64,000 nt of DNA from Amoebophrya sp. A120. Taxonomy: Eukaryota; Protista; Dinoflagellata. This document shows positions 31,754 to 55,486 of this stretch, one piece after another (the first letter of the stretch is position 1; each line of letters begins with the position of its first letter). Position numbers and translations under genes: made by a program. The stretch spans positions 1,015,982 through 1,079,981 of the forward strand of contig CAJINV010000011.1 of NCBI GenBank assembly GCA_905178155.1, written 5' to 3'. Under the pieces are notes generated by a model, which had not been told where the DNA came from, did not search any database, and saw only the letters and a list, made by a program, of their open reading frames with translations.

Positions 31754-34700
31754 ATGACGAAGCGTCTCGCCAGGGGCGATGACTTGTACGATTTAAGCAA
31801 CAGCCTGATCCTGCTTTTTGCCATCTTGCTCCTGCTCTACGGGGTGAAAGGCGCCATCCGGGCGTGGCGGGCCTGCTTGAAATGCCGCATTTTGATGCGG
31901 GCCTTCGGGTTTTTCGACCTGAAAGCCCGACAAAATGCGTACGACAACACGGAGGAGGGAAAGCGGAAAAAGCGCGCTTGCACTTGCTGCTTCCGAACTT
32001 GTAGTTCCAGGTGTTGCGAGCGACAGCCAGCAGATGATAGCCCAGACGACATTCGTCTTCGACCCGGGGCGGGCCGCACGACGCAGAGTCAACTGCTACG
32101 GCAGCGTGGCCAAGTTCTAGAAGCAGGAGATGTACAGAAAAAGCCTCTCCTGCAAAGCGGCGCCTCCAATTATGATTATGCTGACGCACGGCGGAACACG
32201 AAATCCACCGCCGCTCCCTACAGTGACTACAATTTTGACACCAGAAACAGAAGCTTCATCGATTCCCAATTCAGTGACGCAGCTCCTGCGCCGACCATCC
32301 ATCCCGAAGAGGGGATCAGTATCTACACCTCAGCAGGCGCAGGAGCTCCTGGCCCTGGCGCACCAGCTTCTATAAGACCGACCCCTCCGACAGAGAGAGA
32401 AAAGGCCGACTGCATCCGCAACATTCTTTCCTACGGCGAACTGCATATTTCCGAGATGAATGCGGACCAGGACGAGGTACAATCCCACGTGTGGAAGGGT
32501 TTTTGGCTGACCGCGTGCATTTTTTTCGGGTTGGTCCGCTTCCAAGACATGAACTACATGTCGCGGGAGCTACTTGATTTGTCCGGCGGGTACGACACCG
32601 GGACGGTGTTCGCACCCCCGGCGATTTGCATCCGCTACTTGCTGGATGTAACTCGGCAGTTCCTTTTGGTCACCGGACTGCTATTCGCCGTGTTCATTCC
32701 GCGGGCGCGACGAAAGGACTACTGGGTCTATGACTTGCCGAAGGACGTGTCGCAGGAGGAACTCGATTTGCTGTTGCGAAACCGCAACGTTGGCTGGATC
32801 GCGTCCGATTCCTGGCACGGGTTCGCCGCAGGGCTGGCGGGCGCGAATGGGGGGATTAGTACACTCTGTCTGATCTCGGACATCTGGGCGAGGTGGACGA
32901 TAGGTACATATTTATCACCAGTACGTGTGGTTTTTTTCCTCTTCTTTTCTCATATGAATGTTGCTTATTGTGATGCTGTTTATCTTTGTGCTCTGGCTCT
33001 CACAATTGCGAAAAAATGAAAAATTATGTCGAAAAAAACAATTTTTCCCCCGAGTGCGGTTTTTAGCAAGGGGTATTCTGGCGACCCGGGTTGCGATCCT
33101 TCTTTATTGGTACTCGCGCGGCTAGCACAACTGGTAGTGCACCCGGTCGACCTCTCTGGAAGCAGGTAGTACGAAAAGATCTAACTGTGGCGCACCTCCG
33201 GGTGCGCGTCGGGGCCGCGCACCTCCGGGATCGATCCTCAACAGGGAAACGAGGTGGAATGGGGGGCGGTAGTCGAGCCGCTCAGGAGAAGGAACAAAAA
33301 ATCGCGGAGTGATCCCCGCACCACCTGAAACAGATCCACAATGCTTCAGAGAGTTACTAGCGCTACCATGGGGCAGGACTGGGGGGTGCAGGTTCGAATC
33401 CTGCAACGCGCATTTTTTTGCGAAGAATCTTGTTCTCTGTGCGATAAGACGAAGAGGAAGGCGAAGATCATCATAACATAAAAAAAATACTCTACATACA
33501 AATAACACCATCAGGCATTGATCCCTACGGGTTTATCCACGAGCGACGGCAGGGTCTCGGCCTCCTCGGAGAAAACACACCCGGGCAAGCCGCACCGGAA
33601 CCCTTTGAGCAGTTCAACCCGTTTGCGCAGTGTCACGACCGCCAGTGGACCGAGGGCTTTATGTGTTTCATGAAGTGCGCCCCCTTCGCGCCGGGCGAGA
33701 AAATTTGGTACTTCTGCCTCGCGTTCCGGACTTGGCTGATGGTATAGTTTGGGTTTTAACCTTGACTTTGTTTCTTGGTACTGCGCATACTTACTTGAGT
33801 CGAAAACGAAATTTCAGTCTAAGTTGTACTCAGTTGCTGCATTCCTTCTGCAGAAGAACGCTAATTATTTTTGCAGCTTCGTCTTCATCTTCTGGGCAAC
33901 TAACTCGGGAACAACTTCACTTTATCAGGTCCTCTATTTTGCCTCAGTGTATACGATGCAGAAGAAGTTTTCGAGTGTGGAGATCGGCAGCACGGCCTTT
34001 TACCGCGGGTTCCGCGCGGAGCTCGCGATCATCAAGATTGCCGCCTGGGAAACCGTGTTTATCGCGTTCGGCGTGTGGTACACACCGCAAGGTCTGTACG
34101 ACTACCTGAATTGGGGCGGTATGGGGAGCCTGCAGATCATGCTGGCCGTCTTCTCCCTCTTCGTGGCGATTAAGGTGTTACACGACAGCTTCTACTGCTC
34201 TTGGGATATCTTCTGTGACTTCGAGTATTCGGAGGAAATCCTCGCGTGGAAGTTCGACCACAGCTGGAGAGACTTCGAGGAAAGCTTGTCCAAGGGGTTG
34301 GTAAGCATCCACGGAACGAGAACGACACACCCACCAAGGGGCGCCATCGAGCTCGAAGAGCTATTGCACATGCCTCCCGACGAATTGGAAATCAACCAGG
34401 TATTACTCTACAAGGCCCGACCGAGCATGACCACGCCCGTGGCCGGCGCCATGGGCAGGTTCGCGACGACGCCTACTTTAGCAGGAGGAACTCGAACTAC
34501 GACAGTGTTCGAAGGAACTAGTACAAGAGAAATAGGGCAGCAAAGTACTAGAAACATAACCGGCGATAATTACGACCCGACTGGCAGAAGTAAAAGGATC
34601 TTGTTCCCGGATCCACCTGGAGTTGTAGTAACGCCCACGATATCCGTTGTGGATGATCATCACCAAGATTATTCGGCGAGTGACGCCGCGAATACAACTA

Positions 34701-37250
34701 AAGCTCGGATGAATAAGCAACAAAGTCGGACTTTTGAACCCAGCTCCTCAACTATCACAAGGAAAAATCCCCCCTCCCCATATCGAAACGAAGTTTCTGA
34801 TGCTGGATTTGCGTACACAAATCAGGTCTGTCTTGCTGGAGAGGACTGCAGGCATATGCCAAGCCTCGGTCGAGAGGTTTTGGCCTAGGCGCTTAGCATG
34901 AGAAACGTCTATGCTGTAGGCCCAACAGCATCACAAACCGCCTGCATAATGCGGCAGAGCCTGTGGGATTGTCTTCTTGCAAGACAGGCGTGATTTGTGG
35001 TCTCAAATCAGCAAGACAAATTTTCGGAAACATACCTTTTCGATATGGGGAGGGGGGATTTTTCCTCTCAGTATCAACCTCATTCGGAGAACTACGAGGA
35101 GCAGGAAGCAATTTCCCAGTAGTCCCCCAACAAGCTATGTCTTCAACGGTCGTTAGCGTACAGAAGTGTGAATTTGCAGTGAATTTGTATTGCATGACTT
35201 GCATTTACTTGAAAGAGAAGAGCGCTAGCGCTACGTATTAGACACACGAGCCCAAGCATCCCACATAGCCTGAAGGGCTGCTCGTCGCGTGGTGGCGCTT
35301 GCAGCACCAAAAGAGGCGGTCTTGCGGGGGCTCGCCGGGCTGTGTAGTGCGTATCTATCGACCAGAGAAGGTGGGTCGGGGGGCTCTTATTCTTCTGCGC
35401 GTCTGCCTCAGAAGTTCCTCTCCGAAATGGTCGAAAGGGAGGGCGACGCCTGAACACAGGGGCACTAGTTCAACACGTGCGCCCTCACGAGTTGTGGTTG
35501 TGGCTTGGAATTGGGTATCTGGGAGCAGCCTCGGGTGGAAGGGGAGGCACGATTCGGCCGCGGACGCTAGCTTGCTTCGCCTGCTGTGCTCGGCTCACAA
35601 CTCCCCACGTGTCTTTTTGCCTCCGGAGCAAGTCTTATTCGACGTGATCCCCAGGTCAAGAATTCCCTTGGTGAATTTTGGGACTTTTTGTTTTGGCGAC
35701 ACTTTGTTGAAGCCCCAAAGCCCGGAGTTTCTCACGCGCTCGCGAATTTTGAAAAGGAGCCGGAGGACAAAATTCACCGGCGTCCTTTTCAAAATTCACC
35801 CCAAAATTCACCGAGCGCCACTTTTCGATCGTGATAAGCAAAGTTTAGCGCAGAAAAGTGCTCAAAAAAACGCACAAGTAGACCCTGGGAAGTGGGGCCG
35901 AGGGGAAAAGACAGGCGCCCGCTGTTGCCCTAAGCGCCTCTATATTCTGCCGAAAAGGCCGGGAGAGTTCACGCGCCTGCCGGATAGACGCGTCAAAGCT
36001 CTCGGCCGGGTCCTTTCGCCTTTGCTTCCGCGCCTTCATCTTGCCTAAACTGCGCTTATGTGCTTCGCGGCTCTTGTTTTTGGCGTGTTTGCCGCGGCTG
36101 CTGCAGTGCTTGCTCTTTTGCAAGCACAGGAAGACGAAAAGACATGGCCAAAGAATGACGCCCGGGCCATGACATGGCCCGGGCGTCATAAGCCTGGACA
36201 ACTAACTTCTGCGGTGTGCAGAACCCACTTCCCAGAAGAGCAAAAGGGACAATGTCCCGGCAGTCTCCTCTGCTATTTGTCATGCAAAATTCACTACAAA
36301 CTCACCACTTCTCATGCTAACGGGTGTTAAAGCTCTAAACCCAGCTCCTCAACCTCATTCGGAGAACTACGAGTATGCTGTGCAAAAGTATCGTACTCGT
36401 ATAAATGCATTACAAATTGCATCAGCATGACAAAAAGAATTTGTCATGCTGTTTTCGATTGGGATGGAGATTTGTAATGCATAATTGCAATTCATACGAG
36501 TACGATACTTTTGCACAGGATAACGAGGAGCAGGAAGCAATTTCCCAGTAGTCCCCCAACAAGCAGTATCCAAGAAAAAAACGTTGTTAGTGTAAATCTG
36601 TGATGCGCAACATGCAAGACGATTGCGTCTGTCATGCTTGGCATGCATCGTAGGGTCCAATAAAGGGCGTTTTCGCGTACTATCTGCGCATGACAGGTTT
36701 TTGCTGTCATGCCAGACATATTTGTAATGCTGTTCCTCCAAAGAAGTTACACCTACAATGTTTTTTTCTTGGATAAGCAGGTCAGCCTCTCCTGCAGCCC
36801 GGCTTGGAGCTTTCTTTCTCGCCACCTCAAGGCCCCCGCCGCTATTCGAACGCATACTATCCAATACAGAACCAATCTGGCCAGACCAACGCTTCAGGAA
36901 TTATGGAGCAGCAAGACAGGATGAATTTAAATTTAACCTCCTCGCAGGCGAAGCGGAGACTCCAAAACGACAACCCGTGGCTTGACGCGCAGTTAGTTCG
37001 CGCGCTCTCTATCCGGGATGTGTCTCAACAGCAAGGACTCGTGGCCCAAGGAATCAACGGTAATATGGTCGTGCCGCAAAGTAATAGTGGGACGTATTTC
37101 ATTGCAGCAGAAGTAGAAGATGTTGGAGCTCCTGCTGGTGGTGTGATGGAGTACACCACTAGTACACGACGCGCAGAGGAGCAGCAACATCAGCAACCTG
37201 AAGGAGAGCAGGCCCCGTTGGAGGAGGACTTTCTACTTCCAAAAATTTGA
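31754..37250 (+). CDS. Multi-pass membrane protein of unknown function (3' splicing unresolved)
   Basis: Exons 31754-32903, 33515-33741 and 33929-34748 joined by GT-AG introns in frame, then 35075-35135. The natural frame continues at 36777-37250. Several hydrophobic segments. How the 35136-36337 insertion and duplicated exon are removed is unclear; the alternative is a stop at 35241. Confidence 0.6.
33116..33412 (+). ncRNA. tRNA-shaped RNA with ~230-nt insert in place of the anticodon loop (intronic, Pol III-like)
   Basis: GCGCGGC-TA-GCAC-AACTGGTA-GTGC-A-CCCGG ... CTGGG-GGGT-GCAGG-TTCGAAT-CCTGC-AACGCGC-A followed by T7. D arm, anticodon stem and T arm pair; acceptor stem 5/7. Confidence 0.6.
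34753..35073. mobile_element. Introner, family E-like (321 bp)
   Basis: Inverted AGGAAAAATCCCCCCTCCCCATATCGAAA arms; TSD TCAAC/TCAAC; empty site visible at 36349-36353. Confidence 0.92.
35136..36337. mobile_element. 1.2-kb TIR element flanked by a 73-bp exon duplication
   Basis: Left end TATGTCTTCAACGGTCGTTAGCGTACAGAAGTG...GCATGAC is an imperfect inverse of right end GTCATGC...CACTTCTCATGCTAACGGGTGTTAAAGCTCTA; no recognisable transposase. Confidence 0.75.
36374..36522. mobile_element. Introner, family B (149 bp)
   Basis: TATGCTGTGCAAAAGTATCGTACTCGTAT TIR; TSD ACGAG/ACGAG; empty site visible at 35094-35098; repeated at 46144-46292. Confidence 0.95.
36567..36775. mobile_element. Introner, family G (209 bp)
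   Basis: TATCCAAGAAAAAAAC...GTTTTTTTCTTGGATA; TSD AGCAG/AGCAG; repeated at 46337-46545. Confidence 0.92.
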
Positions 37251-37970
37251 TGACGCAGCTCCCTGCTTTTGAAATATAAAATTTTGGAGTACTACACGAA
37301 AGAAAAATCACGATGTCGTGTAAGTTTCTGACTCGAGGTTGTCGTCTAACATTTTGACCACAAGTAGCTTAGTACGAGGAGATCGCATAGAAGTTTTAAC
37401 TCCTCACTCGTGTATGATGCTGTTGAGGATGAAATCGTGCAAATTTAGGTCAATCAAACGAAGTAAGTGTCTTTTATTTGACCTAAGCGACATATACGAC
37501 AACGACTACGACAAGAACGTACTAGGTGCAGGTAGTTGTACCCACTGGTATTACAACCAAGATGCAGCTCTCAGTGAGCTTGCCAGCCAACAAGCCCTGT
37601 ACTAGAAAATGAAAATAGAAGCGATTCGCGCAAAAAAGACAGCCTCCTTGCTGCGCCAAGAAAAGAAAGGCCCAGGCTCCGATGTTGCAGTCTTGAACGA
37701 CCCTCGATGTTCAATAGCAGCGACATGCTCGCTTGCAACAACGACACTTCGACGCTCCTGTTTCGCCCGCCGTTCTTGTGAAAACGATGGTGCGTGCACA
37801 CTGCTTAAGTGCCGTGTTGTGTCGTGGCCGCTGACTTGAGTGGCGTTTTGAAAGGTAACAAGGTTACCATAGGCGTCGACTGACACGGAAGTAGTCCTCG
37901 ATAACTACCACTGCATGAAGACGAAGAACAAGAGGGAATGCAAGCTCAACCCAGCAGCTAGTACGTGACT

Positions 37971-40078
37971 ATGGCCGCCTCTGCTGATGTTGGGGAACAG
38001 GACGGCCAGGGCACTGCGTCTGTTGCCGATGGAGGTGGTACGGAAAATCTTCAGCCTGCCGCATTGCAGGATCAAACCGCTACAACGCCTCGCCCCTGGG
38101 GTTTGCATTTCCCCGACATCTGGATAAACATTTCCCGGGGGGATGGGTCTGCAGAGGTGGCGGAAAAATTGCAGGAAGAACGGAAAGACGCTGTTGCCGA
38201 GCTTGCTGTGCGATATTTCGCGTGTACAACAGCATCATCTTCTGCGGGACCACAGCATGAAGAGCCGCCTGTTGACGAAGAAGTTAGATTGTCAACGGAG
38301 GATATCCAAGGAAAAAGGAATTACAGTTACACATTTGTAGTGAATTCAGCATCACGATCACAAATTTGCCTTGTAATGCAGGGATCATAAGGCAAAACAC
38401 ACGCAAAACGAGACCTGCAAGCATTTTGAGCATGACAGAGGTCGTCTGTCTTGCATGTCTTGCAACACAATGTCAATGTGTAGCTTTAACACTCTTTTCG
38501 TTGCATAGAGGACATTCTTGTTGACCCTTTGGAAGGCGGAATCTCCAACTTGCTCTACAAGGCAACGAACAATAAAGGCGGCGCAGCAGGAAAAAATGCG
38601 GAGAGCAGTCACGCCAATAGTTGTACAGCCCATACCGCAGTCCTAATTCGTCTCTTCGGCGACAGTAAGACGAAAAAAGCCATGTCCGTGTGTGAGCGGA
38701 CCACGGAAAACCAAATCTGCTACGATTTGTTCGCAAAAGCAGACATCGGAGCGGGGGTGCTTGCGACATTCGCGAATGGAAGAATAGAGCGGTTCTTCAC
38801 GGGGTCAAGGGCGTTGGAGCCGACCGAAATGCTTGTTGGAGAGATTTCCGTGCAGATTGCCAAGAAACAAGCGGAGTTTCATCAGGTATAATAATAATTC
38901 GTTTTCGAGTGTAGTTTTGGGTCAGTTGTTACCATCTCAAGCTCGACTACATGAGCATGTTGGTTTGGTTTGGTACGCGCAATGGAACTGCATAAGTACT
39001 GGCTTGTTTTTACTTCCCAGTAGTCAGTACTTACTGCCTGCTCAACTTTCTCTTCTAACCACAGGTGGCCTTCGACGTTTCCTCTCGGCCAGCGAAGAAC
39101 GAAGCCAGCACGAAAACGACACCCAAAAGCGAGATCTGGAGCAAACTGCACGACTGGGTTGAGAAGGCTCGTCACGCCGCAGCCTCGCCGAAGGCGCAAA
39201 ACAGGCTAGATGTCGAAGAGCTGAGCGCCGAGCTCGCATTTTGGGAAACGTGGTTTGCGAAAATCGACGAGGAAAATAATGACGCTGCGAGCGAGCAGGA
39301 GAAGGAGAAGATCACCACCATTACACCAAGAACATCATCCGAAAAAAGATTATCCGACTACAACACCGCACGCCGATTTTGGAGCGAAGTAGTCTTCTGT
39401 CACCAGGATCTCCTCGGAGGCAACGTGCTGGTAGATGAGCAGAACAAAACCGCAAGTACAACTACTTCTGCTGACACGACAAACACGAAGGAAATGAAAA
39501 TCAACAAAAACTCCATGCGATTGATCGACTTCGAGTACGCGTGCTGGAACCACCGGGGTCACGACATCGCGAACCACTTCAACGCGATACCGGAGTCGAT
39601 GCTTATCGTCGCGAACAAGTTTGACCCGGATGAATTTTTTCCGAGTAGGGAGCACGTGAAGAAGTACGTGGCAAGTTACCTGCAGGAGCTTTTCAAGATA
39701 AAGCACGGCATAAGTAAAGATGAAACTGCAGAGCAGGCTGCAGTAGAAAATGCTCAGCCGCAAATGGACTCGTCCTCCACCTCCGCGGTCGTCGAGGTCC
39801 TCACTTCCGACTCCGGGCTCGACGCGCTCCTCGAGTACTGCCCTTTGGCCGAGCTGTACTGGATCCTCTGGGCGGTGATTCTTAGCGCCACGTCCGATGT
39901 GGGCTTTGACTACCAGAACTACGCCGAAATGCGGTGGAACGCGGGGTACAAAAAGTACAAAAAGGAAGTGCTCGCGAGAAGAGAAAACCTGCTAGAGGCA
40001 GCTGGTTCGTCGAATAGTAAAAGACCGAAGAGCACCTTCTGCGCGTTTGGAGGTGGCTCTTGCGCGCGCGCGAAGTGA
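37971..40078 (+). CDS. Choline/ethanolamine kinase, 572 aa
   Basis: Exons 37971-38298, 38509-38885, 39065-40078; LEGGISNLLY, Brenner-type VFCHQDLLGGNVL and LIDFEYACWNHRGHDIANHF motifs. Confidence 0.9.
38303..38507. mobile_element. Introner, family G-like (205 bp)
   Basis: TATCCAAGGAAAAAG...CTTTTCGTTGCATA; TSD GAGGA/GAGGA; restores TEDILVDPLEGG; repeated at 48073-48277. Confidence 0.9.
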
Positions 40079-40935
40079 TTCCATTTGCGCTATATTCATA
40101 TCCGTGTGGGTAAAAACAACTAACTTTGAATTTTTGACAACTAAGCGCCTGCTTCGAGTTCTTGTTCTGTGACCAAAAGTACCACCAGTGCATTTTAGTA
40201 GTGATGAACGCCAACGCGATAGAATGAAGATGTTGTGGTCGACCATGCGGGTGCCGTGACCCTAGCAGTGCATTACATAAAAGTTTTTCAAAAGTACATC
40301 GTTTCGACGACGTGATCTATTTCTTGCGATCGCAGCTTTTTTCTGCTTCCAGCAACAGTGTCTGGACAAATCGGTTCTGGGGAAGATATCTTCACTTCAA
40401 ACCATTTACATCCAGAAAACATTTTCGACACTGAAGTGTTGGAGAAAGCTTCGTTTCGATAGTTTGCCTCTGTGAATATCCGAGCTGTAGTGGTGGCACT
40501 AAAAAACCGGATTTACTGAACTTTCAGAGAGTCAGGATGTGGCACTGAGTCACGACGTTATTCTTATTTCTAAAAGAAGAGAGTACCTATAATTGGAAGG
40601 GCGGGCCGGCGCATGTTCGGAGTGTAAACAAAGACGAGAGTTATGATGTTCAAGTAGCAGCGTTGAGGTTGCACATCTTGTTGTCACGAGTAGAGCTACA
40701 CCTACACTGCGCATCATTAAAAATGCTGGCATTGTGGATGCTTCATTCGTCGCTGCACAGACACGACTCATCCTGGCTGAGGAAGAGAACTTCGCCATGT
40801 GTAACTGGAGGAGCACAGCGTACACCTGCCAGTCGTGCTGAACCGCGGGTCACGACCACCGCGTCAACCTCAACCGGGCTGTCGTCTTCGTGGTAGGCAG
40901 AGGTGTATCCCATCCGCAACCAGCACTAGTGGATC

Positions 40936-43900
40936 ATGCTGGAAGCCCCTACAGGAACGAGCGGCGCGCCCGTGCGGCGCATGTCGCGGTCGATGACGAC
41001 CATTCAGAATCCTGACGGCGGACCGACTCTTTTACGCGAATCTGGCCAGCTATGGAACTGTCAGGATCGAAATCGTCAAAGTTGAAATAATTTGTCATGC
41101 ATAAAATGCAAGGCACGAAGTGCCTGTCTTGCCGGGATGGCAAATGAGGCCGATTGTGAGCCTGTTTCGGGTTTGAAATAGAGCTGCTAAAGTAGCATGA
41201 CAAAAGCAGTCTTCTGTGCGCAAACAGCATGACAAATTGGATTCCGATGCTCGGAAAATTTGTCATGCGCCGCTTGATATGTGGGCTTCCGACTGGCATC
41301 CATTTTATGCATGACAAACTATTTCAATTTCAACTTTGACGATTTCAATCCTGACACGCCCATAACAGCCCTCGCAACCCTTTGTTCGAAGCGTGCGACG
41401 CTCGCAAACACGGCCGGAGTCAGACTTGCTGGATCCAGGTACAACTATGGTGGTAGGGCACAATTACCAAACGATAGCATATGAGAAAATAAATGACAAC
41501 AGTGTAACATCAGAGCCACTAGATCTAGAACTAGCAGTAGTTTTGCATAATCAATACACCCACACACGACCATCAGGTGGGCTCATGGTGGGCAGTCCGA
41601 ACCGTCGGAGCTTCCTTCGCCCCCAGCTCTCCCGCCAGGGCACCCTGGATTCCCCGGAGAGTCGCCGCGCGTCCGTGGTCGCCGGGCCACCGCCGTCGTC
41701 CAGAGACATGATGGGCGGAGGAGTAGGTGGGACTGACATCATCGAGGCCAGCGAGCGGGAAAGTTTGAAGGGCGGCGGCGGTGGGGGGCAACCGCAGCAC
41801 CAGCACCACGGCTTTGGGTTCCGGTCGACGAGCAGGTCGAGAATATGGGACGACGTGCAGGAGGGGAATAATTTGCTGAAAACGTTTTTGGAACCGACAG
41901 GAAACAGTCCGGCGAAGGGAATAGGTTTCTGGTTTTTTCTTTGATTTTTGTGATTGTATGAAAGCGGGAACGAACGAACGTGTGGAAGTAGCCAGTGTAC
42001 CCTTCTTTCCAACGACAATCTCAAGCTGCATCTGCTTTTTGGATATCAAGTAAAAAAGCAGTTGCACAAATAGTCGCAGGACACACTAATCGCACTCGCA
42101 CATCACCAGATAGCAGAAAACATATCAACACCGGCAGTTCCCCGCGCCAACTCGCAGACCCAGCTGGACAAGATTCTTCACCACGGTGGGTTATCAAATG
42201 CAAAAATGTCTGGGTCTGGAGGAGTGGAAACTTGTCATGCATATTTCCATGTCCCAGGAGGTTTGGCATGCAGGAGCTAGCATGACAGATTCTGCGAAGT
42301 CTCTATCAAGCCTATCCTGCATGACAAACTGCCACGAAACTTGTTCAAACGTGGACACCTTTTGGTAATCATGCAACACAAATTTTTGCACTATCCAGAC
42401 TTAGCATGACAAGTTCCAACCTTCCAGACCCAGACATTTTTGCATTTGATACGGGTCGGTTCTGGACAACATTCACGAGGTGGTGAACGAAGTGAAGCTC
42501 ATGGACAGCCAGAATCCGCATTCTCTAAGAGCCTTTGTCGCGAAGAAGAAGCTGCTGCTCTGGCTGTTCATGGAAGAACCGTTTCTCACCCCGGTTTCCA
42601 CGGCTTACTCCCTCGGGATGATTGTGCTGGTCGTGTTTGGGTTTTACACTGCAGTGAAGCCACAGGTACTCATTTTTACGAGCATTCAGAACAACTGCTG
42701 CGATTTCTTGCAATGCTGTGAATGCTGCGAATGTTGTGTTTGTGATGCATAAAAATAAAATTAAAAGCAATTATGACGACAAAAACTAGACCTACGAAGC
42801 CTTCACCGGTGAGTTCCACGATACCGCCTGGGTGGAGGAGAAGCTTTTTTGGTGGACGTTCGCAATTAACCTCATCTGCACGCTGGAGACCGCACTACGC
42901 TTCTCGGTCGCACCGGTGAAGATGAAGTTCATAAACCAAGTTTCGAACCTGTTCGACATTCTGGCGGTGCTCCCCTTCTGGATCAACAATTGTTTCCGGC
43001 TAGACAAACACGTCTCCCCCGGCCTCCGTTACATCTCCGTTTTCGGTGCGGTTTTCTGGTTGGTCAAGCTCTGCAGATATTTCCCAGGTTGGTACCTACT
43101 CCGCATGGCATTGCGGAACAGCATGGCGGCTTTGTTAATCCCGGTGTTTTTCCTGTTGATGATGGGTGTTGCGGGGGCGTCGCTCGTGTTGACGTTTGAC
43201 TGGATTTCTGCCGTGAACGGCGGGATCCCCTTGCAGATCTCTTCCTGGATGAAGGCTTTTCACTACATCATGGTGGTCACCATCTCCATCGACGTATCAC
43301 CAGTTTACGGGACCGCGGCGCAATCCGCCTTGGCGCAAGCGATCGCGGTGTTGTGGATGTATTTGGGTGTGATTTTCCTCTCCATGCCCATCGCAATCGT
43401 GGGAACGTGCTTCTCCCAGACCTGGTTCGACCAGGACAGAATCGTGTTAGTGGAGAAGGTCCGATCGAGAATGCGGCAGCAGGGGTACACGACGGACGAC
43501 TTGCGGGAGGTTTTTGACGAGGTGGATGAGGACGGGTCAGGCGAGATCGATTTCTACGAGTTCAAGCGCATGCTCGAAGCGTTCCACTTCTTCGCGCCGA
43601 TCGGGAAAACGAGGAAACTCTTCAACCACTTCGATACTAATGGGACAGGCTCAATAAGTTATCAGGAGTTCGTCTGCGTCATTTTTCCCGAGATCACCGA
43701 CATTGTCGACTGGGACACGCAACGGGTGGATCGAGACGCTTTGGAGGTGATAGAGGAGGTGGAATCCGATTTGGAAGAAGACTCCTCCGCCCTGTACAGC
43801 AGTACCGGCAGTAGTGGTGCGGATGATGAGAGCTCGGAGTCGTTTCTGCAAAAACGATCTAGATCGCAGTCGTTGGACAAAAAGTCGGTGAACTTTTCGA

Positions 43901-45574
43901 AGACAAGTAGCGAAGACGAGGAGGAGGACGAGGATGGGCCGGCGCGGTTGAGCATCCCGGGGCTGATATCGAAGGGAAAATTGGTCGTGCACAATCCTCT
44001 AAAGGAAGAAAAGCCTGATGCTGGTCGTGAACCGCCTGATAAAGACAATAAGAGTGCAACTACAGCTGCAACAGTAGGAGCTGCATCAGAACCACCTCCA
44101 CCAGCAGATGACAGCACAGCCGGCGGGGGTGGCGAAAATGGTACAGATGATGCAAAAGCGGAACAAGGCGTGGTCACGCAACAAGACAACCCCACTCCCG
44201 ACTTGAACGACAGTAGCATGTTGATCAACGTTCCAGATCATGACACCTCTTTCGCATCATCCGGGAAAAAAAATCAAGCCACGTCACAGAAACAAGCACC
44301 AGGCGGCACAAATCCACGCGAGGAAATCGGCGGTAGCTCTGGATCTTCAAAAAACTCAAAGGAAGAGCAGGCGGACAACCCAGCAGATCCGAATCCTGCG
44401 TCACCAATGGCAGCAGGAGCCAATGACGCCCCACCACCTCAGAAAAACGGCGAAGAAACTTCTACCCAAGTAGAAATGAAGCCAGAATCACCGCCTCCCG
44501 ACGACCCCGTCCCGGAGCGCGTTGTCCCGCGCAGAAGGCAGCAGAGCAGTACCGCCCGTCCGAGGATTGGCACAGTGGAGTCCGTAGCATCACGAGCGTC
44601 GAGGCGGTCCACGCGGTCCGGGAGGCGAAGCAGGCGGGAGAGCAGTGGTCGGCGGTCGTCTAATCGCGACGAAAACGGCGGGAATTCCGCAGTAGAGAAG
44701 AACAGCTCCCTGGTTTCGGCGTTGAGCGTCGCGGCGTTAAATCTGGGGAAAGCGGCAATACGAAGAGGAAGCTCCATGGTATCGATTTTGGCTGTGAGAA
44801 GATGATGCTCTACCATGTTGCAACATTTTCATCCACCTCGCAGAATTTTGATTTTTTAGTAGAGGTGTCGCACAGTAGAAGCACTCCTGCAAACCGCAAT
44901 CGCACTACACAGGTTTCCCTCGGACCCAACGACGAGGAACTGCTGGGTCAAAACATCGTGGTGGACAAGGGCGTAATGCGCCGGACCCGGTCTACCGACG
45001 GCTTTGCGGCGGGCTCGCTCACCGGCAGCTTGGGGCTTGCCTCCGGCGGAACCAGTCCGCCGCCACGGGGCGGCGCGCTGGCCGCCATGGCCTCTGGTGG
45101 TAGATACTAACTTTTTGCCGAAAAAATTATCGGGAAGATGATCTTGATGGAAGACATGCAAGTGCCGATGTAGTATTTCTTCTAGTGAAGAACAAGCTCC
45201 TTGTTCGAAAACAAAAAATCGCACCCACCCCTGGAGGTTCCTCCATTACAACAGGTCCGATCCCACGCGGCAGACGTTCGGGTGGAGAGCAGCTACAATC
45301 AAGACCTTCTGGCGGCGCAGCAACGGCCAGTTCCACCAAATCTTCTGCCAGACCACTTGAACAAGCCGTCGACGGAAATATTAATCTCGTCCCTGTTGCT
45401 CGCACTCTTTCCGCCGGCGCCGCCAGGGTGTCTCCGGCCAGTGGCGCTGCCGGCATTTTCAGTTCCCTGTTTGGTCGGAGTTCTTCGAGGAAGACCGACG
45501 CAGCGAGGGGGGCCCCAGAGATCACGACAAGCGCTGCGATGGGGGGAGGTGGAGGTGGAATCGTGCCAACAACA
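40936..45574 (+). CDS. Kv-like channel with EF hands, copy truncated at the assembly gap
   Basis: Same sequence as 50706-55344; runs into a family A introner (45579-45716) cut by the N gap. Confidence 0.6.
41051..41364. mobile_element. Introner, family H (314 bp)
   Basis: TATGGAACTGTCAGGATCGAAATCGTCAAAGTTGAAAT TIR; TSD CCAGC/ACAGC; restores ESGQPSQP; repeated at 50821-51134. Confidence 0.9.
42192..42451. mobile_element. Introner, family A (260 bp)
   Basis: TATCAAATGCAAAAATGTCTGGGTCTGGA TIR; TSD TGGGT/CGGGT; restores HGGSVLDN; repeated at 51962-52221. Confidence 0.93.
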
Positions 45575-45716
45575 AGCATATCGAATGTAAAAATGTCTGG
45601 GTCTGGAACATTCTGACGCTTGTCATGCACGTTTTGCATGAGCCCTGATGTCTGTGATGCATGCCCTAGCATCACAGATTTTTTCAGAGCTTCTTGATGC
45701 CTATTCCGCATGACAA

Positions 45717-45816: not shown

Positions 45817-48800
45817 AAACTGCGCTTATGTGCTTCGCGGCTCTTGTTTTTGGCGTGTTTGCCGCGGCTGCTGCAGTGCTTGCTCTTTTGCAAGCACAGG
45901 AAGACGAAAAGACATGGCCAAAGAATGACGCCCGGGCCATGACATGGCCCGGGCGTCATAAGCCTGGACAACTAACTTCTGCGGTGTGCAGAACCCACTT
46001 CCCAGAAGAGCAAAAGGGACAATGTCCCGGCAGTCTCCTCTGCTATTTGTCATGCAAAATTCACTACAAACTCACCACTTCTCATGCTAACGGGTGTTAA
46101 AGCTCTAAACCCAGCTCCTCAACCTCATTCGGAGAACTACGAGTATGCTGTGCAAAAGTATCGTACTCGTATAAATGCATTACAAATTGCATCAGCATGA
46201 CAAAAAGAATTTGTCATGCTGTTTTCGATTGGGATGGAGATTTGTAATGCATAATTGCAATTCATACGAGTACGATACTTTTGCACAGGATAACGAGGAG
46301 CAGGAAGCAATTTCCCAGTAGTCCCCCAACAAGCAGTATCCAAGAAAAAAACGTTGTTAGTGTAAATCTGTGATGCGCAACATGCAAGACGATTGCGTCT
46401 GTCATGCTTGGCATGCATCGTAGGGTCCAATAAAGGGCGTTTTCGCGTACTATCTGCGCATGACAGGTTTTTGCTGTCATGCCAGACATATTTGTAATGC
46501 TGTTCCTCCAAAGAAGTTACACCTACAATGTTTTTTTCTTGGATAAGCAGGTCAGCCTCTCCTGCAGCCCGGCTTGGAGCTTTCTTTCTCGCCACCTCAA
46601 GGCCCCCGCCGCTATTCGAACGCATACTATCCAATACAGAACCAATCTGGCCAGACCAACGCTTCAGGAATTATGGAGCAGCAAGACAGGATGAATTTAA
46701 ATTTAACCTCCTCGCAGGCGAAGCGGAGACTCCAAAACGACAACCCGTGGCTTGACGCGCAGTTAGTTCGCGCGCTCTCTATCCGGGATGTGTCTCAACA
46801 GCAAGGACTCGTGGCCCAAGGAATCAACGGTAATATGGTCGTGCCGCAAAGTAATAGTGGGACGTATTTCATTGCAGCAGAAGTAGAAGATGTTGGAGCT
46901 CCTGCTGGTGGTGTGATGGAGTACACCACTAGTACACGACGCGCAGAGGAGCAGCAACATCAGCAACCTGAAGGAGAGCAGGCCCCGTTGGAGGAGGACT
47001 TTCTACTTCCAAAAATTTGATGACGCAGCTCCCTGCTTTTGAAATATAAAATTTTGGAGTACTACACGAAAGAAAAATCACGATGTCGTGTAAGTTTCTG
47101 ACTCGAGGTTGTCGTCTAACATTTTGACCACAAGTAGCTTAGTACGAGGAGATCGCATAGAAGTTTTAACTCCTCACTCGTGTATGATGCTGTTGAGGAT
47201 GAAATCGTGCAAATTTAGGTCAATCAAACGAAGTAAGTGTCTTTTATTTGACCTAAGCGACATATACGACAACGACTACGACAAGAACGTACTAGGTGCA
47301 GGTAGTTGTACCCACTGGTATTACAACCAAGATGCAGCTCTCAGTGAGCTTGCCAGCCAACAAGCCCTGTACTAGAAAATGAAAATAGAAGCGATTCGCG
47401 CAAAAAAGACAGCCTCCTTGCTGCGCCAAGAAAAGAAAGGCCCAGGCTCCGATGTTGCAGTCTTGAACGACCCTCGATGTTCAATAGCAGCGACATGCTC
47501 GCTTGCAACAACGACACTTCGACGCTCCTGTTTCGCCCGCCGTTCTTGTGAAAACGATGGTGCGTGCACACTGCTTAAGTGCCGTGTTGTGTCGTGGCCG
47601 CTGACTTGAGTGGCGTTTTGAAAGGTAACAAGGTTACCATAGGCGTCGACTGACACGGAAGTAGTCCTCGATAACTACCACTGCATGAAGACGAAGAACA
47701 AGAGGGAATGCAAGCTCAACCCAGCAGCTAGTACGTGACTATGGCCGCCTCTGCTGATGTTGGGGAACAGGACGGCCAGGGCACTGCGTCTGTTGCCGAT
47801 GGAGGTGGTACGGAAAATCTTCAGCCTGCCGCATTGCAGGATCAAACCGCTACAACGCCTCGCCCCTGGGGTTTGCATTTCCCCGACATCTGGATAAACA
47901 TTTCCCGGGGGGATGGGTCTGCAGAGGTGGCGGAAAAATTGCAGGAAGAACGGAAAGACGCTGTTGCCGAGCTTGCTGTGCGATATTTCGCGTGTACAAC
48001 AGCATCATCTTCTGCGGGACCACAGCATGAAGAGCCGCCTGTTGACGAAGAAGTTAGATTGTCAACGGAGGATATCCAAGGAAAAAGGAATTACAGTTAC
48101 ACATTTGTAGTGAATTCAGCATCACGATCACAAATTTGCCTTGTAATGCAGGGATCATAAGGCAAAACACACGCAAAACGAGACCTGCAAGCATTTTGAG
48201 CATGACAGAGGTCGTCTGTCTTGCATGTCTTGCAACACAATGTCAATGTGTAGCTTTAACACTCTTTTCGTTGCATAGAGGACATTCTTGTTGACCCTTT
48301 GGAAGGCGGAATCTCCAACTTGCTCTACAAGGCAACGAACAATAAAGGCGGCGCAGCAGGAAAAAATGCGGAGAGCAGTCACGCCAATAGTTGTACAGCC
48401 CATACCGCAGTCCTAATTCGTCTCTTCGGCGACAGTAAGACGAAAAAAGCCATGTCCGTGTGTGAGCGGACCACGGAAAACCAAATCTGCTACGATTTGT
48501 TCGCAAAAGCAGACATCGGAGCGGGGGTGCTTGCGACATTCGCGAATGGAAGAATAGAGCGGTTCTTCACGGGGTCAAGGGCGTTGGAGCCGACCGAAAT
48601 GCTTGTTGGAGAGATTTCCGTGCAGATTGCCAAGAAACAAGCGGAGTTTCATCAGGTATAATAATAATTCGTTTTCGAGTGTAGTTTTGGGTCAGTTGTT
48701 ACCATCTCAAGCTCGACTACATGAGCATGTTGGTTTGGTTTGGTACGCGCAATGGAACTGCATAAGTACTGGCTTGTTTTTACTTCCCAGTAGTCAGTAC

Positions 48801-51800
48801 TTACTGCCTGCTCAACTTTCTCTTCTAACCACAGGTGGCCTTCGACGTTTCCTCTCGGCCAGCGAAGAACGAAGCCAGCACGAAAACGACACCCAAAAGC
48901 GAGATCTGGAGCAAACTGCACGACTGGGTTGAGAAGGCTCGTCACGCCGCAGCCTCGCCGAAGGCGCAAAACAGGCTAGATGTCGAAGAGCTGAGCGCCG
49001 AGCTCGCATTTTGGGAAACGTGGTTTGCGAAAATCGACGAGGAAAATAATGACGCTGCGAGCGAGCAGGAGAAGGAGAAGATCACCACCATTACACCAAG
49101 AACATCATCCGAAAAAAGATTATCCGACTACAACACCGCACGCCGATTTTGGAGCGAAGTAGTCTTCTGTCACCAGGATCTCCTCGGAGGCAACGTGCTG
49201 GTAGATGAGCAGAACAAAACCGCAAGTACAACTACTTCTGCTGACACGACAAACACGAAGGAAATGAAAATCAACAAAAACTCCATGCGATTGATCGACT
49301 TCGAGTACGCGTGCTGGAACCACCGGGGTCACGACATCGCGAACCACTTCAACGCGATACCGGAGTCGATGCTTATCGTCGCGAACAAGTTTGACCCGGA
49401 TGAATTTTTTCCGAGTAGGGAGCACGTGAAGAAGTACGTGGCAAGTTACCTGCAGGAGCTTTTCAAGATAAAGCACGGCATAAGTAAAGATGAAACTGCA
49501 GAGCAGGCTGCAGTAGAAAATGCTCAGCCGCAAATGGACTCGTCCTCCACCTCCGCGGTCGTCGAGGTCCTCACTTCCGACTCCGGGCTCGACGCGCTCC
49601 TCGAGTACTGCCCTTTGGCCGAGCTGTACTGGATCCTCTGGGCGGTGATTCTTAGCGCCACGTCCGATGTGGGCTTTGACTACCAGAACTACGCCGAAAT
49701 GCGGTGGAACGCGGGGTACAAAAAGTACAAAAAGGAAGTGCTCGCGAGAAGAGAAAACCTGCTAGAGGCAGCTGGTTCGTCGAATAGTAAAAGACCGAAG
49801 AGCACCTTCTGCGCGTTTGGAGGTGGCTCTTGCGCGCGCGCGAAGTGATTCCATTTGCGCTATATTCATATCCGTGTGGGTAAAAACAACTAACTTTGAA
49901 TTTTTGACAACTAAGCGCCTGCTTCGAGTTCTTGTTCTGTGACCAAAAGTACCACCAGTGCATTTTAGTAGTGATGAACGCCAACGCGATAGAATGAAGA
50001 TGTTGTGGTCGACCATGCGGGTGCCGTGACCCTAGCAGTGCATTACATAAAAGTTTTTCAAAAGTACATCGTTTCGACGACGTGATCTATTTCTTGCGAT
50101 CGCAGCTTTTTTCTGCTTCCAGCAACAGTGTCTGGACAAATCGGTTCTGGGGAAGATATCTTCACTTCAAACCATTTACATCCAGAAAACATTTTCGACA
50201 CTGAAGTGTTGGAGAAAGCTTCGTTTCGATAGTTTGCCTCTGTGAATATCCGAGCTGTAGTGGTGGCACTAAAAAACCGGATTTACTGAACTTTCAGAGA
50301 GTCAGGATGTGGCACTGAGTCACGACGTTATTCTTATTTCTAAAAGAAGAGAGTACCTATAATTGGAAGGGCGGGCCGGCGCATGTTCGGAGTGTAAACA
50401 AAGACGAGAGTTATGATGTTCAAGTAGCAGCGTTGAGGTTGCACATCTTGTTGTCACGAGTAGAGCTACACCTACACTGCGCATCATTAAAAATGCTGGC
50501 ATTGTGGATGCTTCATTCGTCGCTGCACAGACACGACTCATCCTGGCTGAGGAAGAGAACTTCGCCATGTGTAACTGGAGGAGCACAGCGTACACCTGCC
50601 AGTCGTGCTGAACCGCGGGTCACGACCACCGCGTCAACCTCAACCGGGCTGTCGTCTTCGTGGTAGGCAGAGGTGTATCCCATCCGCAACCAGCACTAGT
50701 GGATCATGCTGGAAGCCCCTACAGGAACGAGCGGCGCGCCCGTGCGGCGCATGTCGCGGTCGATGACGACCATTCAGAATCCTGACGGCGGACCGACTCT
50801 TTTACGCGAATCTGGCCAGCTATGGAACTGTCAGGATCGAAATCGTCAAAGTTGAAATAATTTGTCATGCATAAAATGCAAGGCACGAAGTGCCTGTCTT
50901 GCCGGGATGGCAAATGAGGCCGATTGTGAGCCTGTTTCGGGTTTGAAATAGAGCTGCTAAAGTAGCATGACAAAAGCAGTCTTCTGTGCGCAAACAGCAT
51001 GACAAATTGGATTCCGATGCTCGGAAAATTTGTCATGCGCCGCTTGATATGTGGGCTTCCGACTGGCATCCATTTTATGCATGACAAACTATTTCAATTT
51101 CAACTTTGACGATTTCAATCCTGACACGCCCATAACAGCCCTCGCAACCCTTTGTTCGAAGCGTGCGACGCTCGCAAACACGGCCGGAGTCAGACTTGCT
51201 GGATCCAGGTACAACTATGGTGGTAGGGCACAATTACCAAACGATAGCATATGAGAAAATAAATGACAACAGTGTAACATCAGAGCCACTAGATCTAGAA
51301 CTAGCAGTAGTTTTGCATAATCAATACACCCACACACGACCATCAGGTGGGCTCATGGTGGGCAGTCCGAACCGTCGGAGCTTCCTTCGCCCCCAGCTCT
51401 CCCGCCAGGGCACCCTGGATTCCCCGGAGAGTCGCCGCGCGTCCGTGGTCGCCGGGCCACCGCCGTCGTCCAGAGACATGATGGGCGGAGGAGTAGGTGG
51501 GACTGACATCATCGAGGCCAGCGAGCGGGAAAGTTTGAAGGGCGGCGGCGGTGGGGGGCAACCGCAGCACCAGCACCACGGCTTTGGGTTCCGGTCGACG
51601 AGCAGGTCGAGAATATGGGACGACGTGCAGGAGGGGAATAATTTGCTGAAAACGTTTTTGGAACCGACAGGAAACAGTCCGGCGAAGGGAATAGGTTTCT
51701 GGTTTTTTCTTTGATTTTTGTGATTGTATGAAAGCGGGAACGAACGAACGTGTGGAAGTAGCCAGTGTACCCTTCTTTCCAACGACAATCTCAAGCTGCA

Positions 51801-54800
51801 TCTGCTTTTTGGATATCAAGTAAAAAAGCAGTTGCACAAATAGTCGCAGGACACACTAATCGCACTCGCACATCACCAGATAGCAGAAAACATATCAACA
51901 CCGGCAGTTCCCCGCGCCAACTCGCAGACCCAGCTGGACAAGATTCTTCACCACGGTGGGTTATCAAATGCAAAAATGTCTGGGTCTGGAGGAGTGGAAA
52001 CTTGTCATGCATATTTCCATGTCCCAGGAGGTTTGGCATGCAGGAGCTAGCATGACAGATTCTGCGAAGTCTCTATCAAGCCTATCCTGCATGACAAACT
52101 GCCACGAAACTTGTTCAAACGTGGACACCTTTTGGTAATCATGCAACACAAATTTTTGCACTATCCAGACTTAGCATGACAAGTTCCAACCTTCCAGACC
52201 CAGACATTTTTGCATTTGATACGGGTCGGTTCTGGACAACATTCACGAGGTGGTGAACGAAGTGAAGCTCATGGACAGCCAGAATCCGCATTCTCTAAGA
52301 GCCTTTGTCGCGAAGAAGAAGCTGCTGCTCTGGCTGTTCATGGAAGAACCGTTTCTCACCCCGGTTTCCACGGCTTACTCCCTCGGGATGATTGTGCTGG
52401 TCGTGTTTGGGTTTTACACTGCAGTGAAGCCACAGGTACTCATTTTTACGAGCATTCAGAACAACTGCTGCGATTTCTTGCAATGCTGTGAATGCTGCGA
52501 ATGTTGTGTTTGTGATGCATAAAAATAAAATTAAAAGCAATTATGACGACAAAAACTAGACCTACGAAGCCTTCACCGGTGAGTTCCACGATACCGCCTG
52601 GGTGGAGGAGAAGCTTTTTTGGTGGACGTTCGCAATTAACCTCATCTGCACGCTGGAGACCGCACTACGCTTCTCGGTCGCACCGGTGAAGATGAAGTTC
52701 ATAAACCAAGTTTCGAACCTGTTCGACATTCTGGCGGTGCTCCCCTTCTGGATCAACAATTGTTTCCGGCTAGACAAACACGTCTCCCCCGGCCTCCGTT
52801 ACATCTCCGTTTTCGGTGCGGTTTTCTGGTTGGTCAAGCTCTGCAGATATTTCCCAGGTTGGTACCTACTCCGCATGGCATTGCGGAACAGCATGGCGGC
52901 TTTGTTAATCCCGGTGTTTTTCCTGTTGATGATGGGTGTTGCGGGGGCGTCGCTCGTGTTGACGTTTGACTGGATTTCTGCCGTGAACGGCGGGATCCCC
53001 TTGCAGATCTCTTCCTGGATGAAGGCTTTTCACTACATCATGGTGGTCACCATCTCCATCGACGTATCACCAGTTTACGGGACCGCGGCGCAATCCGCCT
53101 TGGCGCAAGCGATCGCGGTGTTGTGGATGTATTTGGGTGTGATTTTCCTCTCCATGCCCATCGCAATCGTGGGAACGTGCTTCTCCCAGACCTGGTTCGA
53201 CCAGGACAGAATCGTGTTAGTGGAGAAGGTCCGATCGAGAATGCGGCAGCAGGGGTACACGACGGACGACTTGCGGGAGGTTTTTGACGAGGTGGATGAG
53301 GACGGGTCAGGCGAGATCGATTTCTACGAGTTCAAGCGCATGCTCGAAGCGTTCCACTTCTTCGCGCCGATCGGGAAAACGAGGAAACTCTTCAACCACT
53401 TCGATACTAATGGGACAGGCTCAATAAGTTATCAGGAGTTCGTCTGCGTCATTTTTCCCGAGATCACCGACATTGTCGACTGGGACACGCAACGGGTGGA
53501 TCGAGACGCTTTGGAGGTGATAGAGGAGGTGGAATCCGATTTGGAAGAAGACTCCTCCGCCCTGTACAGCAGTACCGGCAGTAGTGGTGCGGATGATGAG
53601 AGCTCGGAGTCGTTTCTGCAAAAACGATCTAGATCGCAGTCGTTGGACAAAAAGTCGGTGAACTTTTCGAAGACAAGTAGCGAAGACGAGGAGGAGGACG
53701 AGGATGGGCCGGCGCGGTTGAGCATCCCGGGGCTGATATCGAAGGGAAAATTGGTCGTGCACAATCCTCTAAAGGAAGAAAAGCCTGATGCTGGTCGTGA
53801 ACCGCCTGATAAAGACAATAAGAGTGCAACTACAGCTGCAACAGTAGGAGCTGCATCAGAACCACCTCCACCAGCAGATGACAGCACAGCCGGCGGGGGT
53901 GGCGAAAATGGTACAGATGATGCAAAAGCGGAACAAGGCGTGGTCACGCAACAAGACAACCCCACTCCCGACTTGAACGACAGTAGCATGTTGATCAACG
54001 TTCCAGATCATGACACCTCTTTCGCATCATCCGGGAAAAAAAATCAAGCCACGTCACAGAAACAAGCACCAGGCGGCACAAATCCACGCGAGGAAATCGG
54101 CGGTAGCTCTGGATCTTCAAAAAACTCAAAGGAAGAGCAGGCGGACAACCCAGCAGATCCGAATCCTGCGTCACCAATGGCAGCAGGAGCCAATGACGCC
54201 CCACCACCTCAGAAAAACGGCGAAGAAACTTCTACCCAAGTAGAAATGAAGCCAGAATCACCGCCTCCCGACGACCCCGTCCCGGAGCGCGTTGTCCCGC
54301 GCAGAAGGCAGCAGAGCAGTACCGCCCGTCCGAGGATTGGCACAGTGGAGTCCGTAGCATCACGAGCGTCGAGGCGGTCCACGCGGTCCGGGAGGCGAAG
54401 CAGGCGGGAGAGCAGTGGTCGGCGGTCGTCTAATCGCGACGAAAACGGCGGGAATTCCGCAGTAGAGAAGAACAGCTCCCTGGTTTCGGCGTTGAGCGTC
54501 GCGGCGTTAAATCTGGGGAAAGCGGCAATACGAAGAGGAAGCTCCATGGTATCGATTTTGGCTGTGAGAAGATGATGCTCTACCATGTTGCAACATTTTC
54601 ATCCACCTCGCAGAATTTTGATTTTTTAGTAGAGGTGTCGCACAGTAGAAGCACTCCTGCAAACCGCAATCGCACTACACAGGTTTCCCTCGGACCCAAC
54701 GACGAGGAACTGCTGGGTCAAAACATCGTGGTGGACAAGGGCGTAATGCGCCGGACCCGGTCTACCGACGGCTTTGCGGCGGGCTCGCTCACCGGCAGCT

Positions 54801-55486
54801 TGGGGCTTGCCTCCGGCGGAACCAGTCCGCCGCCACGGGGCGGCGCGCTGGCCGCCATGGCCTCTGGTGGTAGATACTAACTTTTTGCCGAAAAAATTAT
54901 CGGGAAGATGATCTTGATGGAAGACATGCAAGTGCCGATGTAGTATTTCTTCTAGTGAAGAACAAGCTCCTTGTTCGAAAACAAAAAATCGCACCCACCC
55001 CTGGAGGTTCCTCCATTACAACAGGTCCGATCCCACGCGGCAGACGTTCGGGTGGAGAGCAGCTACAATCAAGACCTTCTGGCGGCGCAGCAACGGCCAG
55101 TTCCACCAAATCTTCTGCCAGACCACTTGAACAAGCCGTCGACGGAAATATTAATCTCGTCCCTGTTGCTCGCACTCTTTCCGCCGGCGCCGCCAGGGTG
55201 TCTCCGGCCAGTGGCGCTGCCGGCATTTTCAGTTCCCTGTTTGGTCGGAGTTCTTCGAGGAAGACCGACGCAGCGAGGGGGGCCCCAGAGATCACGACAA
55301 GCGCTGCGATGGGGGGAGGTGGAGGTGGAATCGTGCCAACAACAAGCATATCGAATGTAAAAATGTCTGGGTCTGGAACATTCTGACGCTTGTCATGCAC
55401 GTTTTGCATGAGCCCTGATGTCTGTGATGCATGCCCTAGCATCACAGATTTTTTCAGACCTTCTTGATGCCTATTCCGCATGACAA
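45817..55486 (+). repeat. 9.67-kb near-identical duplication, copy 2
   Basis: Matches 36047-45716 at offset 9,770. Confidence 0.95.
47741..49848 (+). CDS. Choline/ethanolamine kinase (duplicate copy, probably the same locus)
   Basis: Same as 37971-40078. Confidence 0.75.

Follow-up and report, generated by a model that had tools for sequence, protein, structure and literature searches.

The window analysed here, 64,000 nt of a contig of Amoebophrya sp. A120, carries on its forward strand a protein gene whose first intron contains, in the sense orientation, a tRNA-shaped element with a long insert. The coding part of exon 1 (31755-32903, forward strand) specifies a predicted membrane protein, for which a Pfam family search returned no match. 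The intron that follows (32904-33514, forward strand) is 611 nt long and has GT-AG borders. It is absent from a contig of sequencing run X3 (depth 192.5) that covers exon 1 from 32500, and its removal leaves the host reading frame open across the splice. The placement of the element in a GT-AG intron of that length, first made on the letters alone, is thus borne out by the splice and by the frame. A second host intron, of 187 nt, is likewise spliced out in the same contig. (Runs X3 and X5 are presumed, rather than documented, to be RNA.) The element has a G+C content of 0.60, as against 0.39 and 0.37 in the intron on either side of it.

Several other features of the neighbourhood are recorded for completeness. 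A second X3 contig (2,466 nt, depth 153) matches 32673-32727 with 10 differences and 33667-33699 with 5, and represents either a paralogue or the gene of a relative, judging by these matches. Within the second host intron, at 33787-33880, there is an 11-mer one letter off the 5' end of U1 snRNA (the sole such match in the window on either strand), followed by an 8-mer resembling U1 loop II and a U-rich stretch that doubles as the 3' tract of the intron. A passage of PMC7789003 reports that a search of A120 and A25 yielded no U1. The site in the second intron has no Rfam U1 match, no U1 cloverleaf in its fold and no contig coverage, and its likeness to U1 is probably due to chance. Further downstream, 36047-45688 and 45817-55458 are blocks of 9,642 nt that are identical in every letter and are separated by a 100-N gap. 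Each carries a choline kinase and an ion-channel/EF-hand open reading frame, and the duplication is likely a scaffolding artefact. The choline-kinase product shows 100% identity to a protein that its source assigns to Amoebophrya sp. A120. A long, A+T-rich intergenic hairpin at 36383-36513 (duplicated at 46153-46283) matches Rfam MIR828 weakly, below the gathering score, and may be a small inverted-repeat element.

The tRNA-shaped frame at 33116-33412 is a real feature of this DNA. Its 5' half (33116-33148, forward strand) consists of an acceptor strand, an A box, a D arm and one strand of the extended anticodon stem; its 3' half (33377-33412, forward strand) consists of the other anticodon-stem strand, a variable region of 4 nt, the B box and T arm, the second acceptor strand and the discriminator A33412. 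Seven Ts that resemble a Pol III terminator follow at 33413-33419 (forward strand). Those parts that the sequence-only reading named lie where it had put them, as do the mismatches that it noted in the acceptor stem, at 6-67 and 7-66, which leave a stem of 5 bp. The D stem is formed by 33125-33128 with 33137-33140, the T arm spans 33388-33404, and the anticodon stem does extend into the insert, to 7 bp (33142-33148 with 33377-33383). Pair probabilities are 0.87-0.93 in the acceptor stem, 0.98-0.99 in the anticodon stem, 1.0 in the T stem and 0.5 in the D stem. Both boxes fit the Pol III consensus (A box TRGYNNARNNG, B box RGTTCRANTCC; extract of PMC7954030), and the T7 run completes a type 2 Pol III layout.

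ARAGORN and Rfam had been proposed as checks of this frame. At its default threshold ARAGORN calls no gene in the window when introns are disallowed; with introns of up to 600 nt allowed, 33116-33412 is the sole gene called in the window, as compared with 2 matches in 60 shuffled windows. A strict descriptor of the frame matches once in the window and not at all in 60 shuffles. The Rfam search of a 316-nt stretch, at E<=10, matched no known family; the T arm alone scored, at 15.3 bits. Two minor resemblances lie close by. The end of the insert, 33370-33377, resembles 33384-33392 (the variable region and the 5' strand of the T stem) in the manner of a short duplication, and each of the two can pair with 33138-33144. 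In addition, 33064-33100, situated 16-50 nt 5' of the element, reads as a D-loop-like segment and then a T arm that is one base too long, the anticodon arm being absent; it is possibly a decayed piece of a tRNA, or else a chance likeness.

A normal decoding tRNA has U33 in an anticodon loop of 7 nt. In the element positions 33 and 37 are both C, and 32-38 and 33-37 are paired, in agreement with the earlier remark that U33 and a normal anticodon loop are missing. It follows that no splice yields a normal anticodon loop, and hence no decoding tRNA.

What takes the place of the anticodon loop is an insert of 228 nt between the two strands of the anticodon stem. Its putative parts follow one another in the order P2, CR-I, P7-P10 four-way junction, J11/12, P12, UGAAA, AAUG, P2, which matches the consensus lines of Rfam RF00373 and RF00010 for RNase P RNA. 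The 5' strand of the P2-like helix (33152-33164, forward strand) pairs with 33342-33353, with probabilities of 0.82-0.97 for its outer and 0.31-0.85 for its inner pairs. The place of P3 (33165-33172, forward strand) is reduced to 8 nt without a real helix. The CR-I-like motif GAAAAGAUC, which would include the 5' strand of P4 (33173-33185, forward strand), has a candidate bulged U at 33180 and lacks a stable partner. It contains AAGAUC (AARN-U-C), and has AA where the consensus GAGGAAAgUCC has the preceding GG. From the candidate bulged U to J11/12 the distance is 61 nt (61 in E. coli rnpB and 52 in the RNase P locus L169). The segment 33186-33240 (forward strand) is predicted to hold the 5' strand of P7, a P8 hairpin (33190-33207, probability 0.95), a P9 hairpin (33208-33232) and the 5' strand of P10/P11. 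P7 and P10/11 are both short and have ensemble probabilities of 0.02-0.04 and, in the register tested, 0.0; the P7-P11 helices are mutually compatible in one constrained fold at -100.2 kcal/mol, as against -114.9 kcal/mol for the minimum free energy fold.

A strand resembling J11/12 (CR-II; 33241-33252, forward strand) is 12 nt long, as it also is in both Rfam lines, shares 8 of its 12 letters with the bacterial line, and includes AGGGA at 33243-33247 as a first T-loop. There follows a P12-like arm (33253-33325, forward strand), a branched structure of 73 nt that has a closing helix of probability 0.98 and a purine-rich loop left unpaired. The J12/11-like strand (CR-III; 33326-33332, forward strand) then supplies a second T-loop, UGAAA at 33326-33330, comparable with GaUGAAACG in the archaeal Rfam consensus. 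Double T-loops of this type obey the rule AGNNA ... UGNNA and dock the tRNA elbow (extracts of PMC3664808 and PMC10966300), and in sequence AGGGA ... UGAAA around P12 satisfies that rule. The remainder (33333-33353, forward strand) can be aligned by sequence with the Rfam consensus as the 3' strands of P11, P10 and P7, AAUG as a CR-IV-like end, and the 3' strand of P2; after AAUG comes the 3' strand of a helix that, in the fashion of P2, has its other strand ahead of CR-I. The upstream part of CR-IV is absent, and so are P5 and P15; like the archaeal model, the insert has no P13/P14.

The claim that the insert is itself paired stands, with one qualification. The helix 33152-33164/33342-33353 and the hairpin 33190-33207 are present as described, but the folding energy is no better than that of shuffles (z is -1.40 over the full length of the RNA and -0.53, -1.57 and -0.13 for parts of it), so that calling the element highly structured depends on individual helices rather than on energy.

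The layout was also examined with a five-step descriptor (J11/12, P12, the P11 pair, CR-I, and AAUG with P2). It matches 20 of 30 archaeal RNase P loci, and among three bacterial ones it reaches its full level in one (E. coli rnpB) and level 4 in two, the third being missed. Run over 128,000 nt of window sequence, it matches at position 33241 only. Level 4 was reached by none of 160 non-RNase P loci (286,966 nt) nor by any of 134 further ones (166,998 nt), and one off-target match was found in archaeal flanks. Of 150,000 shuffles, 8 reach level 4 and 1 reaches level 5; the background is about 1 false match per 760 kb. Because the descriptor was composed after the element had been seen, and its CR-I step loosened to admit it, the shuffle rates are optimistic. 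A strict pattern made of two motifs has one further match in the 128,000 nt searched; among 200,000 dinucleotide shuffles, 30 contain it. All of the RNase P controls are prokaryotic, with no nuclear RNase P RNA among them.

Model searches were silent. The 316-nt stretch drew no match at E<=10 from the Rfam models of RNase P, MRP and other families, and nothing relevant was found at E<=1 in 5 kb or in the whole window. From 20 Methanococci specificity cores a profile HMM was built, together with a covariance model (R1), and neither finds the element; since R1 also misses E. coli rnpB, that result is uninformative. RNase MRP RNA was considered and rejected, T-loop motifs being present in the element but P4 absent and no match to RF00030 obtained; RNase MRP RNA is described in part of PMC10966300 as lacking the T-loop anchor. 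Likenesses to SRP RNA, U6, group I/II introns, telomerase RNA and the L1 stalk were dropped after comparison by eye with the motifs of those RNAs. For a single sequence, the motif evidence that the insert comes from RNase P RNA is strong, if assembled post hoc, and an origin of that kind is probable. The catalytic core is what is not found.

In RNase P RNA, CR-I pairs with CR-V to make P4, which is the active site and is conserved more strongly than any other part (PMC4919922, in extract). The place where CR-V and the 3' strand of P4 belong (33354-33376, forward strand) offers nothing better than interrupted complements to the 5' strand of P4. In four registers, P4 formed in cis has energies of 0.1 to +2.3 kcal/mol, as compared with -10.1 to -12.8 kcal/mol for the controls (E. 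coli and four archaeal RNAs). The best other duplex available to the P4 5' strand, at -2.7 kcal/mol, is in the T arm. Given two bulges, the broken complement at 33353-33365, which ends in CUA, could form 7 Watson-Crick pairs with the 5' strand of P4. An alternative P1 (33138-33146 with 33366-33375) could follow it, but the tRNA frame is more stable than that fold by 6.5 kcal/mol. No P4 strand in a CR-V context that might serve in trans was found near the locus. As no stable P4 is predicted, we do not class the element with the RNase P RNAs; its insert would work, if it works at all, in the manner of a specificity domain.

Relatives of the element were sought in a metagenome scan (at least 118 stretches), in which none among the matches listed passes the descriptor or exceeds similarity in the T arm, and in seven viral scans (41, 0, 1, 2, 3, 51 and 80 stretches), which yielded ordinary tRNAs or chance matches. 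With no homologue found there is no covariation to consider, and a claim of selection has no support from conservation. The persistence of intact helices beside two acceptor mismatches, together with a G+C content well above that of the flanks, does no more than suggest selection. A search with Rpp29/Pop4 for longer relatives gave 19 proteins, of which the 8 examined looked archaeal. Two contigs of depth 3.5 fall within the intron: one of run X5 covers 33223-33383, with no X5 contig for the exons, and one of run X3 covers 33331-33508. The latter extends 89 nt beyond the terminator and for that reason looks like unspliced RNA or DNA. Two contigs cannot reveal transcript ends, and they neither show nor exclude a stand-alone transcript.

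The best reading of the element is, in our estimate, that it is a tRNA scaffold bearing a non-catalytic, tRNA-elbow-binding domain derived from RNase P RNA; we place its probability at roughly 0.4. Transcription by Pol III from the internal boxes would be independent of the host mRNA, as in established Pol III biology, and trimming of the ends as in a pre-tRNA would leave an RNA of about 297-300 nt. The tRNA body could serve as promoter and as protection of the ends, in the way of an engineered tRNA scaffold, the anticodon stem would stand in for P1, and the double T-loop would grip the elbow of other tRNAs. As no catalytic helix is predicted, the product is likely neither a tRNA nor a whole ribozyme but an RNA that binds tRNA: stable, non-decoding and non-catalytic. 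The most tenuous step would be to regard it as the substrate holder of a remodelled RNase P whose catalysis comes from a second RNA or from proteins. The sequence-only reading had offered a Pol III-transcribed tRNA mimic of a new kind, a description with which the A box, the B box and the T7 run agree, but it overlooked the likeness of the insert to RNase P RNA.

Two of the competing explanations keep the element within a functioning RNase P. It might be a very divergent working nuclear RNase P RNA, in which proteins hold a weak, bulged P4 of 33177-33185 with 33353-33364 and in which the tRNA frame is a promoter or a precursor that refolds. Candidates for every RNase P region up to CR-IV are in place; the 7 pairs that 33353-33365 can make, its CUA end (as in archaeal CR-V) and the start of the alternative P1 directly after 33365 speak for this reading. 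So do small P3 helices in Microsporidia and Giardia (extract of PMC1636426), RNase P RNA genes embedded in introns of insects (extract of PMC4287351), and the occurrence of RNase P proteins in alveolates. Yet the bulged P4 would cost +2.3 kcal/mol and overlaps the strongly predicted extension of P2, the alternative P1 comes at the energetic price already given, the helix in question is the one that RNase P RNAs conserve most (PMC4919922, in extract), and RF00009 does not match. We regard this as unlikely, while ranking it ahead of the other alternatives. An RNase P split in two is improbable. In such an enzyme the tRNA-framed RNA would give P2, CR-I, the entire specificity domain and CR-IV, and the 3' strand of P4 and CR-V would come in trans from another, short RNA. 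If true, it would be a two-piece nuclear ribozyme expressed inside a tRNA whose own maturation depends on that enzyme.

The remaining explanations deny the element an RNase P-related function, or any RNase P connection. That part of a gene for RNase P RNA was inserted in a tRNA gene and that the resulting chimera is dead and decaying in the intron is only a little less plausible than a working RNase P RNA: P4 is broken, P3 is lost, two acceptor pairs are mismatched, folding does not surpass that of shuffles, no homologue was found and RNA coverage is very low. Decay sits awkwardly with promoter boxes, a terminator and D, anticodon, T, P2, P8 and P12 helices that are all intact, and with junctions that make a clean 7-bp stem. 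Slightly more doubtful again is a tRNA-mimic RNA whose insert has nothing to do with RNase P, the likeness having come about by chance or through a convergent double T-loop. Double T-loops are found also in the L1 stalk and in T-box leaders (PMC3664808, in extract), and the Rfam and R1 results and the post hoc descriptor are compatible with such an origin. Against it are five features whose order and spacing are both right, at a background of one match in about 760 kb. Very improbable, finally, are a tRNA with a giant intron and a tRNA-derived SINE, both of which the sequence-only reading had entertained, and a tRNA gene hit by a MITE or introner with 33152-33164/33342-33353 as its inverted repeats. 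ARAGORN can be made to force an intron of 225 nt, and introner elements as well as MITE-like repeats occur in A120 (extract of PMC7789003). Nuclear tRNA introns are located behind base 37 (PMC7954030, in extract), but any splice of the element leaves C33 and a cut after 37 leaves C37 also; with the pairs 32-38 and 33-37, this leaves the giant intron, as first suggested, unsupported. The inverted repeat has no flanking direct repeat, and there is neither a SINE tail nor a second copy within the 64-kb window.

If the element is expressed, it is an RNase P RNA missed by family models in this lineage, or a stand-alone eukaryotic elbow clamp, or one half of a split ribozyme. A tRNA body that carries an RNase P-type domain would unite the RNA of an enzyme with its class of substrate in one molecule, and the element could provide a search image for divergent RNase P RNAs that dinoflagellates may conceal within tRNA frames. 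In the portions of the literature covered by our search neither an RNase P-like domain in a tRNA body nor an Amoebophrya RNase P RNA is described, and in the text searched of two Amoebophrya genome papers, including PMC7789003, the words "RNase P" are not present. Surveys of eukaryotic RNase P outside that search may include RNase P RNAs or PRORP of dinoflagellates, an entry of which could shift the odds between the rival explanations.

With RNase P RNA (RF00373, RF00010, RF00009) the element shares the order and spacing of P2, a candidate CR-I, predicted P7-P11, a 12-nt J11/12 with AGNNA, P12, UGAAA, AAUG and P2; it differs in having no stable P4, no clear CR-V, a vestigial P3 and neither P5 nor P15, in the tRNA anticodon stem that takes the place of P1, in the tRNA body around it, and in the absence of an Rfam score. 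Another resemblance is to the RNase P RNA genes that insects and crustaceans carry within introns (PMC4287351, in extract): there too an RNase P-type RNA lies in the sense strand of a protein-gene intron. Transfer-messenger RNA (RF00023) also has tRNA ends linked by a long internal domain, which is of similar size. Its alanine determinant is a G3-U70 pair. The element has G3-C70 instead, as well as a D stem and a nuclear eukaryotic locus; neither ARAGORN at its default threshold nor Rfam calls a tmRNA (a tag appears in ARAGORN only at a lowered threshold, with the entry "Tag not identified"), and that identity was rejected. A parallel in design is the engineered tRNA scaffold of Ponchon and colleagues (extract of PMC3753655), which likewise keeps the acceptor, D and T arms and places a foreign domain at the anticodon stem-loop. 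The element, in contrast, occurs naturally, within an intron that is spliced out, and has a sequence of its own and two acceptor mismatches; if the preferred reading of a tRNA scaffold with an RNase P-derived domain holds, the engineered design would also exist in a nuclear genome.
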